Source: a virus. From it: a stretch of DNA of 13,730 nucleotides. Position 1 is the first letter of the stretch; every line of letters starts with the position of its first letter. The stretch is taken from the UHGV virus genome UHGV-0087644. The stretch is one strand, 5' to 3'. Made by a program: the position numbers and the translations under genes. Below, one piece after another: positions 264-11,571 of the stretch. Under the pieces are notes generated by a model. That model had not been told where the DNA came from. It ran no database searches and worked only from the letters and a program-made list of their open reading frames with translations.

Positions 264-632
264 TCACTCCCCTTTGATGCGAATGCCAGCGGCGCGGATT
301 GCATCGATGACTTCAGAAACTTTGTATGCCATTACCGTTTGGTAATCATCGTGAAAATCTGTTCGATGAAGCATGCTGCTACGTTCCGGGAGCAGTATTT
401 CCCGCTCCTCCAGTTCTGCAATGCGTTTGCTTTGAGCTTCCAGTTCACCCAGTAGTGCCAGCACGGTAGCCGGATTAGCCTTGGCAATAAAATCCCGGAC
501 TGGCTTACAATCAATCTCCGCACTACCGTGACGAATAACGAAAAAATCACCGTTTATTTTTTTAGCTTGCCACTTATCTTTACCGGCTTTCACTGCCACA
601 TCACGCAGTGCCTGATAGTCAATCTCGCTCAC
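264..632 (-). CDS. hypothetical phage protein (possibly Ead/Ea22-like, tentative)
   Basis: 122-aa ORF in track; GTG start at 632-630 preceded by strong SD AAGGAGG; overlaps upstream gene by 14 nt. Family label is from memory of an ANPATVLALLxELE-type motif only. Confidence 0.55.
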   Translation of the reverse strand: MSEIDYQALRDVAVKAGKDKWQAKKINGDFFVIRHGSAEIDCKPVRDFIAKANPATVLALLGELEAQSKRIAELEEREILLPERSSMLHRTDFHDDYQTVMAYKVSEVIDAIRAAGIRIKGE

Positions 633-1113
633 TGGTTACCTCCTTCATAAAAATAATCCAGTGGGTCTTGTCACCCTTTCCTGTTCGTTGACCGATAACA
701 GGCTTTCTGTCGGTCAGTGCCAATATCTGGCGAACAGGTATTTGCGTTTCATTCCATTTAAAAATCAGAACGCCGTATGGCCACAACACACGAAAGGCTT
801 CTTTGAATCCCTGCCGTAAATCATCACGCCAGGTATCTTTATTCAGCCGTCCATATTTCTTTCCCATCCAGGCGTTATCACCAACACGCTCAAGATGCGG
901 AGGGTCGAATACAACCATCGAAAAGGATGCGTCTGCAAATGGTAGTGCACGAAAATCAGCCATCAGGTCAGGACTGATAATCAGGCGTCGTCCATCACAC
1001 AATGTGTGCTCTTCCTTTCTGATATCGCTAAATATCGCCCGGTCGTCATTCTTATCGAACCAGAACATGCGACTACCACAGCACATGTCGAGGATTGCTG
1101 CATGTCCAGTCAC
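619..1113 (-). CDS. small SAM-dependent methyltransferase, probably DNA N6-adenine/N4-cytosine type
   Basis: 164-aa ORF; motif-I-like ILDMCCGS near N-terminus and motif-IV-like VVFDPPH about 60 aa later; GTG start at 1113 with strong SD AAGGAGG, overlapping upstream stop (GTGA). Target and base specificity not determinable by eye. Confidence 0.55.
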   Translation of the reverse strand: MTGHAAILDMCCGSRMFWFDKNDDRAIFSDIRKEEHTLCDGRRLIISPDLMADFRALPFADASFSMVVFDPPHLERVGDNAWMGKKYGRLNKDTWRDDLRQGFKEAFRVLWPYGVLIFKWNETQIPVRQILALTDRKPVIGQRTGKGDKTHWIIFMKEVTSERD

Positions 1114-1802
1114 TGGTTGCCTCCTTTGCGAAGCTGGGCATCGGTATTGATGCGACTAAAATAGAATCCGAATACTTTCTTCCATGGCTTAACAACAGCG
1201 TCCCTGATTGAGTTTGGGTTAAATCCAGCCTCGATGGCCTGTTTGCTGTCAAAGAACACATACCCAAAACCTTCCTCGTTCTCAGCGCAGACTGGACCTT
1301 TATACGAACCGTGTTTTCTTCCCCCGGCCAGACCTGTTCTATATGCGTGCTGAGTGTTGCCCGCTACCGTCGTCCACTCCAGGTTTGAAACATCATTGTT
1401 TTGTTTATTCCCGTCTATATGGTTAATTACGTGCTCATCAGAAGGCTTAGGGCCGAGAAAGTTTTCAGCAACTAATCGGTGGATGTTCACGCCTTTTAGT
1501 TTTCCTTCAAGCTCCAGCCTAACGAATAAATACTGATTTCTGTTCTTGCCGCGCATGGTTGGGTTTAATTGCTTTAGTTCGCCAGAGGCCAATGAGAAAA
1601 TGAGTCCCTTTGAGGTGATGAAATAGCGATACTTAAAACCAAAAATCTCTTTCACATCGCCAAATAAGTCAGCCAGCGCCGCGCACTTGGCCTCCGCTTC
1701 AGCAAATTTACGCACCAGATATTCAGCGTTTGTTTCGTTAACCTTTAAATCACTTGGGATGCATTTACCTTTCAGAAATCCATCCATCTCAATTAGTGTC
1801 AT
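1110..1802 (-). CDS. HNH homing-endonuclease-like protein (NUMOD4 + HNH_3 type)
   Basis: Track ORF 1110-1829; contains [17 protein letters not shown] (NUMOD4-like) then [20 protein letters not shown] (HNH_3 signature). Start chosen at ATG 1802, which overlaps the upstream stop (ATGA); 1811 or GTG 1829 are alternatives. Confidence 0.7.
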
Positions 1803-1972
1803 TTGTTCCATTTCTTCCCACTCCGCCACATTGCATTCAGATATTTGTTGTCATTAACAGAACCGAAACTATTTCTCTTAAGCAATTCCTCTCTCGATGG
1901 CATTGGCTTTACGCGTTGGCGAATAATCATTTCTGCCGGAAGAATGCCGGGATTGTATGCAAGTCCTCTCAT
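1799..1972 (-). CDS. hypothetical small protein (57 aa)
   Basis: Sub-ORF of track ORF 1799-2122; ATG at 1972 preceded by GAGGA; stop overlaps HNH start. The longer track version would overlap the upstream gene extensively. Confidence 0.3.
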
Positions 1973-1982
1973 TGTAAATTCC

Positions 1983-2276
1983 TCAGTCATTACTGATAGC
2001 GCCATAGCGTGAGCGGTAATTACGCAGGCGCGGGTCAATTTCAGGGAAGTGGGTATATGTGGCTTTGCGGAATGGTCGGATTGATGTCTGGTAAATTCGC
2101 TCGCGTTCTTCTTTCTCTGCAAGCCATATACAGTGGCGAAATTCCTTTTCCTCTTTCGTTTCCTGCGGTAGAGACATTATTCGATCGTAGTTTTTTCTGA
2201 ATTTATCCAGCACCTCCGATACGGAATTGCCGGAACAGCGGCGCGGGTCATCCGCACCATACAAAGGCGCTGGCAT
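1983..2276 (-). CDS. hypothetical protein, possibly anti-RecBCD Abc2-like (P22 abc2 position and size)
   Basis: 97-aa ORF with SD AAGGAT before ATG 2276; sits distal to erf as abc2 does in P22. Assignment is by position, size and partial sequence recall, not a search. Confidence 0.45.
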
Positions 2277-2299: not shown

Positions 2300-2683
2300 T
2301 CAGAATGGGATGGAATCGTCGTATACAGGAGTGTTCTGCTGGTTACTACTTTGCTGCTGCGGGCCATTTCCTGAAGCTGCAAATCCAATCTTTGCATTCA
2401 GTAATTCAAGAGTGATTGATTGACCATTTTGCCCCTGATAAATATCAACCCTGATGTTTTCTCCGGTAATTTCAACAATGCCACCTTCAACAAGAACACT
2501 ACGGTAGTAATCCGCTTGCGCTCCCGGCTTGGCAAATACAACGGAGCTGTAGTTTGTCCATTCTTTCTTTTTTGTCTGGCGATCGTAATACTGAACGCCA
2601 GCACGGATGTTGAATCCGATATTTTCCCCGGTATGAAACTCTCTTGCGGGCTTGTTTAGTCTTACGGTAATCGAATGTGCCAT
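2300..2683 (-). CDS. mini single-stranded-DNA-binding (SSB-like, OB-fold) protein
   Basis: Start at internal ATG 2683-2681, overlapping erf stop (TAATG); 127 aa ending in DDSIPF, the canonical SSB acidic C-terminal tail, preceded by a Gly/Gln-rich linker and OB-fold-like N-terminal region. Confidence 0.55.
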   Translation of the reverse strand: MAHSITVRLNKPAREFHTGENIGFNIRAGVQYYDRQTKKKEWTNYSSVVFAKPGAQADYYRSVLVEGGIVEITGENIRVDIYQGQNGQSITLELLNAKIGFAASGNGPQQQSSNQQNTPVYDDSIPF

Positions 2684-3288
2684 TAAGCAGCAGCTCCTTC
2701 TAATTCGTCTCGTCTGATGTTGTAAACGTCCTGCGCTTTGTGCTGCTCCGGTGTGCCTTCGAGCATCTTCCACGCTTTGGCGAACGCCTGTTTAAGCTCT
2801 TCTACGGTGTTTTTCTGCATTGCTGCGTCAGTGAATGCTTTTAGAACCTGTTCAGGTGTAGGTGATGGTTTTGATTGCTTTGCTGCTGCGTTCTGCTGAT
2901 GTTTATGCTCGTCGGTATCTGCATCTTTCGCATCATCAATGCCGAACAAACCATTGAGGCAATACTTGCGTGCATAAGAGCTTGTAGCTCCCGTAACTTG
3001 TGCAGAATCCATTCCTTTCTTGCTTTCTTCCTCTCGTGCAAGAGCGGTTGCCGTATGACTGTTTTCGCCATCGGTAATAGTTGCCGTGGCTTTCACGTAA
3101 TACCGATCACCAATCAACACAACTTCATCGCTGATTGATAAAAACAGACCATTCAGTAACGGCTTAACGCCTTCAAGAATGTCTTCGCAGCTTCTGTATT
3201 TATATTTACCGAATGAGTTGTACTGATTCTTTGGCGCGTTCAGATTCTCCTGAATGGCTGCCAGCCTTGCATAAAATTCTTTGCTCAT
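2683..3288 (-). CDS. erf: Erf, essential recombination function (ssDNA annealing) protein
   Basis: Track ORF 2683-3318; sequence from MSKEFYARLAAIQENLNAPKNQYNSFGKYKYRSCEDILEG matches my recollection of P22 Erf. Start placed at ATG 3288 because the 3318 start is a TTG without SD. Confidence 0.8.
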   Translation of the reverse strand: MSKEFYARLAAIQENLNAPKNQYNSFGKYKYRSCEDILEGVKPLLNGLFLSISDEVVLIGDRYYVKATATITDGENSHTATALAREEESKKGMDSAQVTGATSSYARKYCLNGLFGIDDAKDADTDEHKHQQNAAAKQSKPSPTPEQVLKAFTDAAMQKNTVEELKQAFAKAWKMLEGTPEQHKAQDVYNIRRDELEGAAA

Positions 3289-3837: not shown

Positions 3838-4806
3838 TTAGTAGGTTATTTTTGTTGCGAATACTTCGCCTTTTACGATGGCTGTTATGATATTTTTAGC
3901 AACATCTTCTGATGCGCCAACCTTGATAAGGTCAGCAAGTATTTTGTTATTTACTTCTTTCCGGTGAGCTTTATCCTTTGCTCTACGCTCTTCTTCGTCC
4001 TTGATTCTTTTTCCTTCTGCTATTCTGGCTTGCTCTTTTGCTTCAGCCTCGCGCCGGATTCGTTCAGCCTCCTCCTGTGCTTTTCGGCGTTCTGCTTCAA
4101 TTGCCGCCTGCTTTTCTCTTTCAGCTCGTTCTGCTGCCTCTTTTGCTTCGCGCTGTGCTCGTTGCTCGGCTTCAATGCGTTCACGCTCTGCACGTTCCGC
4201 TGCGGCCTTAGCTTCTGCTTCTCGCCTTGCTGCTGCTTCAATTTCGGCTTTTGCCTTTGCTTCGGCTTCTGCTCTGGCTTTCTCTTCAGCTTCTCTTTTT
4301 AAGCGTTCTTCATACTCTCGCTTTTCCTGCTCCGCTTTGAGTCTTGCCTCTTCTCTTTGGCGGTCAAATTCGCGATCCATCAAAATAGCTATTTCATGGT
4401 CAGACTCAATTTGCTTTGCGAGAGCTTCAGCTGCTGCCTTAGCTTCTTCTTCGGCTTTAATCCGTGCCTGTTCCTCCTCATAATCAGTAAGAGGCTGGCG
4501 CGCCTTGGCTTTCAGTTCATCAAGGCGATCGCGCACTGTCTTGCGGTTGGCATCAATTAGCTTTGGAATTTCCTTCAGTTCAGCAACAAGGTCTTTGCCA
4601 AGACCATCGAGATATGTTTTCGTCTGCGCAACTTTATACGCCAGAGAAGCGATCTCCTTTCTGCCCTTTGCCGTTGTGATATCAGGCACAAAGGACATAA
4701 CTTCACGTTCAACCCTTTGAAGGATTTCTTCAATCTGGTCGGCAGACTGAAATACAGTCATTGCATTTGCTTTTTCAATAACAACTAAATCTGTTACTTC
4801 ACTCAT
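3838..4806 (-). CDS. coiled-coil protein with long E/R/K/A-rich helical segment, function unknown
   Basis: 322-aa track ORF; ATG 4806 with SD GGAGG; folded-looking N-terminal about 110 aa, then about 160 aa of charged low-complexity helix (EAEAKAKAEIEAAARREAEAKAAAERAERE...), then short C-terminal domain ending KITY. Confidence 0.7.
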   Translation of the reverse strand: MSEVTDLVVIEKANAMTVFQSADQIEEILQRVEREVMSFVPDITTAKGRKEIASLAYKVAQTKTYLDGLGKDLVAELKEIPKLIDANRKTVRDRLDELKAKARQPLTDYEEEQARIKAEEEAKAAAEALAKQIESDHEIAILMDREFDRQREEARLKAEQEKREYEERLKREAEEKARAEAEAKAKAEIEAAARREAEAKAAAERAERERIEAEQRAQREAKEAAERAEREKQAAIEAERRKAQEEAERIRREAEAKEQARIAEGKRIKDEEERRAKDKAHRKEVNNKILADLIKVGASEDVAKNIITAIVKGEVFATKITY

Positions 4807-9219: not shown

Positions 9220-9381
9220 ATGACAAAACGTCGTAAGAAATACCAGGAAAAAGAAGAGATTCGACACCCTGATTCACCTGAGGGATTAGTGGTAGCCGCA
9301 GCAAATAACAGGGCGTTCGCAGAGCGCCTTGTTGGTGTTTACAGACTAGCCAAAGCAGGAGTGAAACATGGGCGTCGTTAA
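9220..9381 (+). CDS. possible small basic protein (53 aa) between cII and O
   Basis: Not in track; ATG 9220 preceded by AGGAG; [53 protein letters not shown]; 3' end overlaps the O start by 14 nt. Confidence 0.3.
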   Translation: MTKRRKKYQEKEEIRHPDSPEGLVVAAANNRAFAERLVGVYRLAKAGVKHGRR

Positions 9382-10198
9382 GTTAGCTGATTACAGGCCT
9401 CAACTGGAGGTCGTGGAGCATCGCGTGGCAGAACTCGAAGATGGCTACACTCGGACTGCAAACACACTGTTAGAAGCCGCCATGCTTTCTGGACTTACTC
9501 TACATCAGTTACTGATTGTTATGGCTGTGTGGCGCAAGACATACGGTTACAACAAAAAAATAGATTGGATCGGAAACGAACAGTTCGCTGAACTCACTGG
9601 CATGGCACCAACCAAATGCTCTACCGCCAAAAACGAGCTTATCAGAATGGGAGTTCTCATTCAGGTTGGGCGTCAAGTTGGTATGAATACAAACATTTCC
9701 GAGTGGAAAACGAAAGTTAACGGATTCGGTAAAACATTTACCAATTCGGTAAAACAAACCTTCACCAAATCGGTAAAAAGCAATTTACCGAATCAGTCAA
9801 ACACAAAAGACAATATACAAAAGACAATAAATACAAATACCCCCTTACCCCCTAACGGGGATGGCGATGGGCAGGTTAAACCTGAACGTCGCAAGGCAGA
9901 ACGAATCGACTACGAATCCTTCCTGAACGCCTACAACACCGAAGTCGGTGACAGACTTCCACACGCTGTTGCGGTCAACGAGAAACGAAAACGCCGCCTG
10001 AAGAAAATCATCCCGCAACTGAAAACGCCAAACGTGGACGGTTTCAGGGCGTATGTCAGGGCTTTTGTGCATCAGGCCAAGCCGTTTTACTTCGGAGACA
10101 ACGACACGGGCTGGACGGCTGATTTTGATTACCTGCTTAGGGAAGACTCGTTAACGGGAGTTCGGGAAGGGAAGTTTGCAGACAGGGGGATTGCATGA
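9368..10198 (+). CDS. O: replication initiation protein O homolog
   Basis: 276-aa track ORF after cII; SD AGGAG; iterons and an A/T-rich stretch inside the coding region; stop overlaps helicase start (ATGA). Confidence 0.75.
9724..9840. repeat. origin of replication: iterons plus A/T-rich region inside the O gene
   Basis: Direct repeats ATTCGGTAAAAC (9724-9735, 9744-9755), ATCGGTAAAAAG (9768-9779), inverted copy TTTACCGAAT (9784-9793), then A-rich 9801-9840. Confidence 0.6.
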
Positions 10199-11571
10199 AA
10201 CAGGATATCGAAGCGAGCGTTATCGGTGGCCTGCTGATTGGTGGATTAACACCAACCGCCAGCGACGTTCTGGCAACGCTGGATCCGGAAGCGTTTTCAA
10301 TTCCACTCTACCGGAAAGCCTTCGAGGTTATCCGCAAGCAGGCGAGAAACAGAAACCTAATCGATGCGCTGATGGTTGCCGAGGCGTGCGGAGAGGAGCA
10401 TTTCACGTCAATCCTGATGACCAGCAAAAACTGCCCGAGTGCCGCAAACCTGAAGGGATATGCCGGAATGGTCGCGGATAACTATCACCGCCGTCTGGTT
10501 CTGGAAATCATGGATGAAATGCGTGAACCAATTCAGAGCGGAACCATCGACGCATCGAGTCAGGCGATGGATGAGCTTGTAAAGCGTCTTTCAGCCATCA
10601 GAAAGCCCCGTGACGAGGTTAAACCTGTACGGTTAGGGGAAATCATCACTGACTACACTGACACGCTTGACAGGCGCCTGAGGAACGGAGAAGAGTCAGA
10701 TACCCTGAAGACCGGAATCGAAGAACTTGACGCCATCACCGGAGGGATGAACGCAGAAGACCTGGTGATAATCGCTGCTCGTCCTGGTATGGGGAAAACC
10801 GAGCTGGCGCTGAAGATTGCCGAAGGCGTTGCAAGCCGAGTTATTCCTGGTTCTGACGTCCGGCGCGGAGTGTTGATTTTCTCGATGGAAATGAGCGCAT
10901 TGCAGATTGCAGAGCGAAGCATTGCCAACGCCGGGAGGATGTCGGTTAGCGTGCTGCGAAATCCTGCATCGATGGATGACGAAGGCTGGGCGCGCGTTGC
11001 TAACGGCATGAGTCAGCTTGCAGATTTGGATGTATGGGTAGTCGATGCCTCGCGGTTATCGGTCGAAGAAATACGCTCAATCGCAGAACGGCACAAACAG
11101 GAAAATCCAAACCTGTCACTCATCATGGCGGATTATCTTGGCCTGATTGAGAAGCCGAAAGCAGACCGCAACGACCTCGCAATTGCTCACATCTCCGGAA
11201 GCCTGAAGGCGATGGCGAAAGACCTGAAAACGCCAGTTATCTCCCTGAGTCAGCTTTCGCGCGATGTTGAGAAGCGACCAAACAAACGTCCGACAAACGC
11301 AGATTTGCGTGATTCTGGAAGCATTGAGCAGGACGCAGACTCAATCATCATGCTCTATCGGGAAGCTGTATATGACGAGAACAGTAGCGCCGCGCCATTT
11401 GCTGAAATCATTGTGACGAAAAACCGTTTTGGCTCACTTGGTACGGTTTACCAGCGGTTCTGCAACGGACACTTTGTTGCATGTGACCAGGATGAAGCCA
11501 GACAGATTTGCACAGCATCAAATGCACCTGCTGCGCGTGGCAGACGATATGCACAAGGGGCTGACGTATGA
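10195..11571 (+). CDS. DnaB-family replicative DNA helicase (P22 gene 12-like)
   Basis: 458-aa track ORF; Walker [14 protein letters not shown]; DnaB-like N-terminal region and RecA-like C-terminal domain; coupled to O. Confidence 0.85.

Follow-up and report, generated by a model that had tools for sequence, protein, structure and literature searches.

The region analysed here (the window, i.e. the whole 13,730-nt stretch of the viral genome UHGV-0087644) is a mosaic lambdoid early region with Ead/Ea22-like, HNH, abc2, ssb, erf, kil, cIII, ral, cI-like repressor, cro-, O- and DnaB-like genes. The gene under study is encoded on the minus strand between erf and abc2, the next gene downstream, from which its stop codon is separated by 23 nt (Table 1). 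It corresponds to gene 40 of phage HK97 (97% nucleotide identity over the erf-40-abc2 region), the product of which was named SSB-1b, a diverged SSB, from AlphaFold 3 fold similarity (Genome Res 2025, PMC12315714); we retain this name and call the gene ssb-1b. The segment shows 97-98.5% DNA identity to HK97, HK106, Sf101 and several Stx1a phages, the Erf of the window is 100% identical to that of HK97, and the HK97 gene order cIII-kil-42-erf-40-abc2 is the same as in the window.

Table 1. Features at and around ssb-1b, in window coordinates
Feature	Coordinates	Strand	Extent or position	Basis
ssb-1b (HK97 gene 40 homologue)	2300..2683	-	127 codons plus TGA stop at 2300-2302	translation, HK97 match, PHROG 44
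OB-fold ssDNA-binding domain (predicted)	2375..2683	-	residues 1-103	
linker, intrinsically disordered, Gln/Asn/Ser-rich	2324..2374	-	residues 104-120	pLDDT <50 for 107-121; hypervariable in homologues
acidic C-terminal tip YDDSIPF	2303..2323	-	residues 121-127	translation and homologue comparison
Shine-Dalgarno AAGGAG for ssb-1b	2694..2699	-	within erf 3' end, 10 nt upstream of ATG	read from sequence
erf, single-strand annealing protein	2683..3288	-	201 aa	Pfam ERF 2.1e-44
mosaic joint inside erf	2686..2811	-	last ~42 codons	
abc2 (anti-RecBCD)	1983..2276	-		Pfam Anti-RecBCD_p2 6.1e-64; PHROG 656
HNH endonuclease gene	1110..1829	-	239 aa; 153 nt downstream of abc2	Pfam HNH_3 7e-14; PHROG 59
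ORF with VVFDPPH	619..1113	-	164 aa; overlaps HNH gene end by 4 nt	no Pfam match
Glu/Ala/Lys/Arg-rich ORF	3838..4806	-	322 aa; between cIII and ral in PL operon	no Pfam match

Translation of the minus-strand ORF yields the product MAHSITVRLNKPAREFHTGENIGFNIRAGVQYYDRQTKKKEWTNYSSVVFAKPGAQADYYRSVLVEGGIVEITGENIRVDIYQGQNGQSITLELLNAKIGFAASGNGPQQQSSNQQNTPVYDDSIPF, which terminates in NTPVYDDSIPF*, bearing out the first-pass annotation of a 127-aa frame with a DDSIPF tail. The TAATG overlap directly after erf, also recorded there, is equally present: the erf stop TAA (2685-2683) and the ssb-1b ATG (2683-2681) have base 2683 in common, and the plus-strand cattaa at 2681-2686 corresponds to TTAATG on the minus strand. 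Because full-length homologues open with a shared N-terminus, MAHSITVRLNK or a close variant, the start giving 127 aa is the correct one; with the start thus fixed the product keeps this length, rather than becoming an ordinary full-length SSB, an outcome for which the first-pass annotation had allowed. The alternative GTG start at 2773, which would give 157 aa, was discarded, as its extra N-terminus overlaps erf and is found in no homologue. On the coding strand no promoter-like or terminator-like site was found in the erf-ssb-abc2 stretch. On the plus strand, an ORF at 2420..2659 (79 aa) and a terminator-like hairpin at 2604 are both within chance expectation and were set aside.

Several neighbouring genes deserve mention in their own right. 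The position of the HNH endonuclease gene is occupied in HK97 by gp38/gp37, and similarity to P22 resumes at 1830; the N-terminal ~55 residues of the endonuclease match separate PHROGs of unknown function (614, 583, 14548). Candidate explanations are a mobile insertion of the homing type and a nuclease of the Rec module, such as ES18 has. The motif VVFDPPH in the overlapping 164-aa ORF resembles motif IV (D/N/S-P-P-Y/F/H) of the N6-adenine/N4-cytosine DNA methyltransferases, and the ORF may encode a small phage methyltransferase. The product of the 322-aa ORF is extremely rich in Glu, Ala, Lys and Arg and coiled-coil-like, with long EAKAKAE/AERAERE repeats, and the label 'TolA' under the whole-window match in the mEp213 record PV340538 may refer to it.

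Homology of SSB-1b to bacterial SSBs

Searches with the single 127-aa sequence recovered no Pfam match at E<=1, nothing significant in NCBIfam and no relevant match among PDB sequences, while TIGR00621 remained below threshold (13.6 bits against a cutoff of 53.95; E 0.063). Canonical SSB was thus reached only with family profiles. A profile of 71 family sequences retrieved from the PDB Klebsiella SSB (1.4e-6), yeast Rim1 (2.4e-4, OB domain only) and E. coli SSB (EcSSB; 5e-3), and profile-profile comparison by hhalign gave a probability of 93.8% against EcSSB with 44 sequences, 96.5% (E 8.5e-10) with 71 sequences, and 95.4% against the SSB of phage ES18. The Pfam SSB model (PF00436) is matched individually by six of the 71 family members, with 2e-6 as the best value.

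The structural evidence points in the same direction. An AlphaFold2 model computed from the 44-sequence alignment (mean pLDDT 86) presents residues 1-103 as a confident beta-barrel with a helix (55-63) between strands 3 and 4 and two long hairpins, i.e. the five-strand barrel, capping helix and long beta-hairpins of an SSB-type OB fold, followed by a stretch with pLDDT <50 over residues 107-121 that corresponds to the disordered linker. The top 50 Foldseek matches in the PDB are exclusively bacterial, mitochondrial or apicoplast SSBs and PriB (best E 2e-5, TM 0.4-0.56), and the named matches in a search of a viral structure library are all SSBs. A PriB-like reading was rejected, PriB being devoid of an acidic tail, as was a T7 gp2.5-like one, gp2.5 being absent among the listed fold matches. 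Structure prediction, which the first-pass annotation had proposed as a check on its OB-fold-like reading, thus finds the fold, and the fold searches and profile comparisons agree with it.

In EcSSB, Trp40, Trp54, Phe60 and Trp88 are the four ssDNA-stacking residues of the 1EYG complex. The hhalign alignments place Y32, W42, F50 and Y82 of SSB-1b opposite them, and an aromatic residue is retained across the family at W42 (71/71), F50 (70/71) and Y82 (55/71). Y32 is aromatic in only 35/71 and the adjacent Y33 is Tyr/Phe in 57/71, so that at this first aromatic the alignment may be shifted by one residue. EcSSB His55 has no conserved counterpart, Thr43 being its SSB-1b equivalent, and therefore the oligomer interface of SSB-1b may differ; T43-N44-Y45 is nearly invariant in the family, with a two-residue insertion after the Trp54 equivalent. 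Taken together, we regard the ssb-1b product with good confidence as a bona fide, highly diverged member of the bacterial-type SSB lineage.

The protein had been described as a 'mini' SSB, much shorter than that of the host. It is indeed short overall; its OB core, however, is full-size (~103 aa, against ~112 aa in EcSSB), and the shortness stems from the linker alone, which comprises 18 aa (SGNGPQQQSSNQQNTPV) as compared with about 56 aa in EcSSB. Linkers of 9 to 93 aa (median 40) occur across the family, whose members measure 116 to 201 aa in all. The linker of SSB-1b was also thought to be Gly/Gln-rich; the Gln holds, Gly does not, the composition being rich in Gln, Asn, Ser and Pro.

At the tip, DDSIPF differs at a single position from the DDDIPF of the host SSB, which ends DFDDDIPF. 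In the 120 closest cluster representatives, D-D-x-IPF or DDxPPF closes most full-length members, and the linker before it varies freely; DDSIPF is the commonest ending, and DDDIPF, DDxPPF and similar forms also occur. A strict acidic-IPF pattern is passed by 68 of the 146 wider representatives at 50% identity, and many of the others are fragments, frameshifted products or proteins with one extra residue after the tip. In one of the alignments (A2) tip conservation is partly by construction, tip-bearing members having been chosen for it. The host-type tip noted in the first-pass annotation is thus conserved among homologues beside a hypervariable linker and, judged from this sequence comparison, is not a product of chance.

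Two further groups of homologues depart from this pattern. In the representatives P0125, P0154, P0160 and P0257 a conserved extension continues past the tip (...D[ED]IPFAPIGLQ/M...), leaving IPF internal; recognition of an SSB tip normally involves the free carboxylate of the C-terminal Phe. Frameshifts or truncations affect many copies from E. coli or Salmonella (P0016, P0042, P0055, P0065, P0086, P0104, P0113, P0181, P0246 and others), one example being a recurrent ending ...KMVNQSLLNY from the -1 frame, which suggests either frequent gene decay in resident prophages or assembly errors.

Distribution and gene neighbourhoods

Of 1.84 billion cluster representatives scanned in full with HMMER, only 229 were recovered at E<=1e-3; SSB-1b therefore constitutes a compact branch of its own, separate from the canonical SSBs at the HMM level. 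Within E. coli it is common, ssb-1b being found in 579 of 5,426 complete genomes (about 11%), and it is present in many HK97-like, P22-like and Stx-converting phages. In all rows among the matches listed for the E. coli genomes it adjoins an 'ERF family protein' and is labelled 'hypothetical protein', the label that RefSeq and most GenBank records also give it. The HK97 record gives 'gene 40 / Gp40' and no function, and the label 'ssb protein' is already used in one GenBank record at least, that of phage HF4s. PHROG 44, 'single strand DNA binding protein', matches the 127-aa protein (3.4e-25), so that both this family and the 2025 study (PMC12315714) had already assigned the ssb-1b product to the SSBs. 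That study describes SSB-1b as being without any experimental study, and our literature search found no experimental report of ssDNA binding by it. What is added here is homology at the profile level, the DNA-contact aromatics, the size of the family, the statistics of tip and linker, and synteny beyond the lambdoid phages. This is mainly a point of annotation, in that a 'hypothetical protein' can now be relabelled, with good confidence, as a diverged SSB, and current understanding is overturned by none of these results.

The gene shows a consistent neighbourhood: an annealase gene precedes it in all contexts examined, and is its immediate neighbour in all but one. Across seven contexts the upstream annealase is Erf six times, namely in HK97 and relatives, Edwardsiella GF-2, Vibrio phage K69, E. 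coli phage KW1E_UTAR, a 43-kb metagenomic phage contig and a 28-kb contig (L009) in which Erf is followed by a YqaJ exonuclease and CsrA before SSB-1b. The seventh, a Leminorella grimontii prophage, has instead an AAA_24 gene (Sak4-type, RecA-like; L010 2138..3417), the end of which abuts the SSB-1b start. Thus, the SSB-1b type is used with two unrelated annealase families. The CsrA-family gene of the Erf-YqaJ-CsrA-SSB arrangement (L009 2825..2998) encodes 57 aa.

The slot after erf, which is informative as to function, may also hold other genes. In ES18 it is occupied by a canonical SSB, in the order erf-ssb-endonuclease-abc2, and in Salmonella phage ABTNLsp11242 by a canonical SSB of 153 aa (PF00436 2.2e-40) ending MDFDDDIPF. 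In P22 it holds abc1 (erf 27254-27871, abc1 26970-27254, abc2 26630-26923), with the same end-to-start junction as here, and the first-pass annotation was therefore correct in assigning ssb-1b the position of P22 abc1. In mEp234 the SSB-1b gene beside the intact erf is reduced to an N-terminal remnant of 64 codons (L013 1150..1344), which suggests that the gene is dispensable for phage viability.

The exchange relative to P22 extends into erf itself. At the DNA level the stretch without similarity to P22 is exactly 2287-2811, covering ssb and the last ~42 erf codons, and the Erf of the window is 92% identical to P22 Erf over residues 1-135 and 39% over the last 55. Of 55 phage records, 46 have the Erf C-terminus plus SSB-1b cassette in complete form. 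Wherever the downstream gene is visible, the window-type C-terminus is followed by an SSB gene or its remnant: SSB-1b in these 46 records, the remnant in mEp234, and a canonical SSB in two Salmonella phages. The P22-type C-terminus is accompanied by abc1 in 78 records; beside the same C-terminus type abc1 is missing in ES18, where a canonical SSB gene follows directly, and in Sf6, ε34 and ECP1, and a strictly co-inherited cassette of Erf C-terminus and downstream gene therefore holds only in part. Physical proximity alone, and not a specific interaction, may account for this partial linkage. A paper on lambdoid co-transfer (PMC9836094) contains nothing on SSB.

Proposed role and alternatives

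We propose that SSB-1b is probably a diverged SSB that coats ssDNA and, through its tip, recruits Erf and the host partners of SSB. In this proposal the leftward early operon would produce SSB-1b in translational coupling to Erf, and its OB domain, presumably in oligomeric form, would bind the ssDNA arising from phage recombination and replication via aromatics equivalent to those of E. coli SSB. The flexible linker would present the host-like acidic tip DDSIPF, which is predicted to recruit the co-expressed annealase onto SSB-coated ssDNA and might bind tail-docking host partners of SSB as well. With the RecBCD-modifying Abc2 added, the result would be a nuclease-less recombination module of SSB, annealase and anti-RecBCD protein. 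A module type of this composition (anti-RecBCD, SSB and annealase, no nuclease) is known as the 'HK75' functional type, with 27 phages (PMC12315714). A precedent for the predicted contact is presented by the HK620 SSB, the last six residues of which (NDYPPF) are needed for the binding of Sak4 to SSB-coated ssDNA; this SSB stimulates Sak4 annealing and recombineering, again with a requirement for these residues (PMC5928155), and the activity of single-strand annealing proteins depends more generally on SSB C-terminal tails (PMC12054835).

The first-pass annotation had offered two functions side by side, cooperation with Erf on ssDNA or service as a decoy, and it is the former that we favour over the latter in view of the conserved ssDNA-contact aromatics, the annealase gene upstream and the precedent of the HK620 system (PMC5928155). 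Under the decoy model the host-like tip would draw such partners as ExoI, RecJ, RecQ, PriA and pol III chi off host SSB, thereby protecting phage ssDNA ends or disturbing host repair, with ssDNA binding only secondary. The near-identity of the tip to DDDIPF agrees with such a role, and the short linker and the neighbouring anti-RecBCD gene abc2 fit a theme of host takeover; yet a pure decoy would have no need for an OB domain whose ssDNA-stacking aromatics are kept down to about 27% family identity, a canonical and clearly DNA-binding SSB replaces SSB-1b in the same slot, and the position after annealase genes fits cooperation on ssDNA. We consider titration as the primary function very unlikely. 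Some competition with host SSB for partners is nonetheless unavoidable, and the decoy model is in this respect partly compatible with the main one. Also quite unlikely is a general replication SSB that supplements limiting host SSB in theta or rolling-circle replication, with the adjacency to erf being historical. Bacterial-type SSBs act in both replication and recombination, and the E. coli SSB tip recruits pol III chi and PriA. The tip of SSB-1b would accordingly be able to recruit the host pol III chi subunit and PriA, and the phage has its own helicase and initiator, a P22-type gp18/gp12 replisome at 9368-11571. The gene is, however, located in the PL recombination module and not with the replication genes, is translationally coupled to erf, and tracks the annealase gene across distant phages; moreover, lambdoid phages without any SSB gene replicate normally, and an SSB gene is absent from 177 of the 246 Enterobacteriales panel phages with recognisable Rec module genes (PMC12315714).

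The shared slot between erf and abc2 could alternatively suggest a modulator of the P22 Abc1 kind that acts with Abc2 on RecBCD, and not as an SSB. This we hold to be most improbable: the hhalign probability against Abc1 is 0.3%, i.e. there is no detectable similarity, Abc1 is a shorter, different protein without an acidic IPF tip, and the fold of the 127-aa protein is that of an SSB-type OB domain. A narrower variant of our own proposal would make SSB-1b a dedicated recombination adaptor, the tip of which loads Erf via the variable C-terminal ~42 residues of the latter, the part that differs from P22 along with the ssb gene, and borrows host SSB-tail clients such as RecJ, RecQ or ExoI; we rate this as a tentative and rather unlikely elaboration. 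If it were true, the host clients would supply the end-resection nuclease that is absent from the module of Abc2, SSB and Erf, and the C-terminal domain of Erf would be a previously undefined SSB-tip-binding module. The preferred reading of SSB-1b as an ssDNA-coating, Erf-recruiting SSB has a practical side as well. The pairing of annealase and SSB determines how well recombineering transfers between species (PMC12054835, PMC5928155). Erf and SSB-1b form a compact natural pair, convenient for asking whether Erf recognises the SSB tail as Redβ and Sak4 do.

Relation to known phage and bacterial SSBs

The closest named counterpart, HK97 Gp40, shows minor sequence differences, with a CDS of 390 nt as against 384 nt here including the stop. 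The gene for P22 Abc1 is likewise placed between erf and abc2, with the same stop/start junction to erf; Abc1 itself is not an SSB and is unrelated, a relationship being rejected on the hhalign value given above. E. coli SSB and the bacterial-type phage SSBs (PF00436; 'SSB-1', e.g. ES18 gp48, Sf6 and ABTNLsp11242) have, like SSB-1b, an OB fold with aligned aromatics, a disordered low-complexity linker and an acidic IPF tip, whereas identity between the two groups is about 15%, below the Pfam and TIGRFAM thresholds. EcSSB is further set apart by its longer linker (about 56 versus 18 aa), and by His55, which is absent in SSB-1b, where the TNY insertion is found. The ES18 and ABTNLsp11242 SSBs resemble SSB-1b in the OB fold, the short linker, the acidic IPF tip and the slot after erf.

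The HK620 SSB (HkaK, 'SSB-2') offers the nearest parallel in organization. Its gene likewise lies directly after the annealase gene and before abc2 in a lambdoid PL operon, and its tail, NDYPPF, has a counterpart in those SSB-1b members that also end in PPF. It is longer (195 aa, versus 127 aa for SSB-1b), and a relationship between the two was rejected (hhalign 0.3%). The partner of HkaK is the RecA-like Sak4, whereas that of SSB-1b here is the Rad52-like Erf, and one SSB-1b pairs with a Sak4-type annealase.
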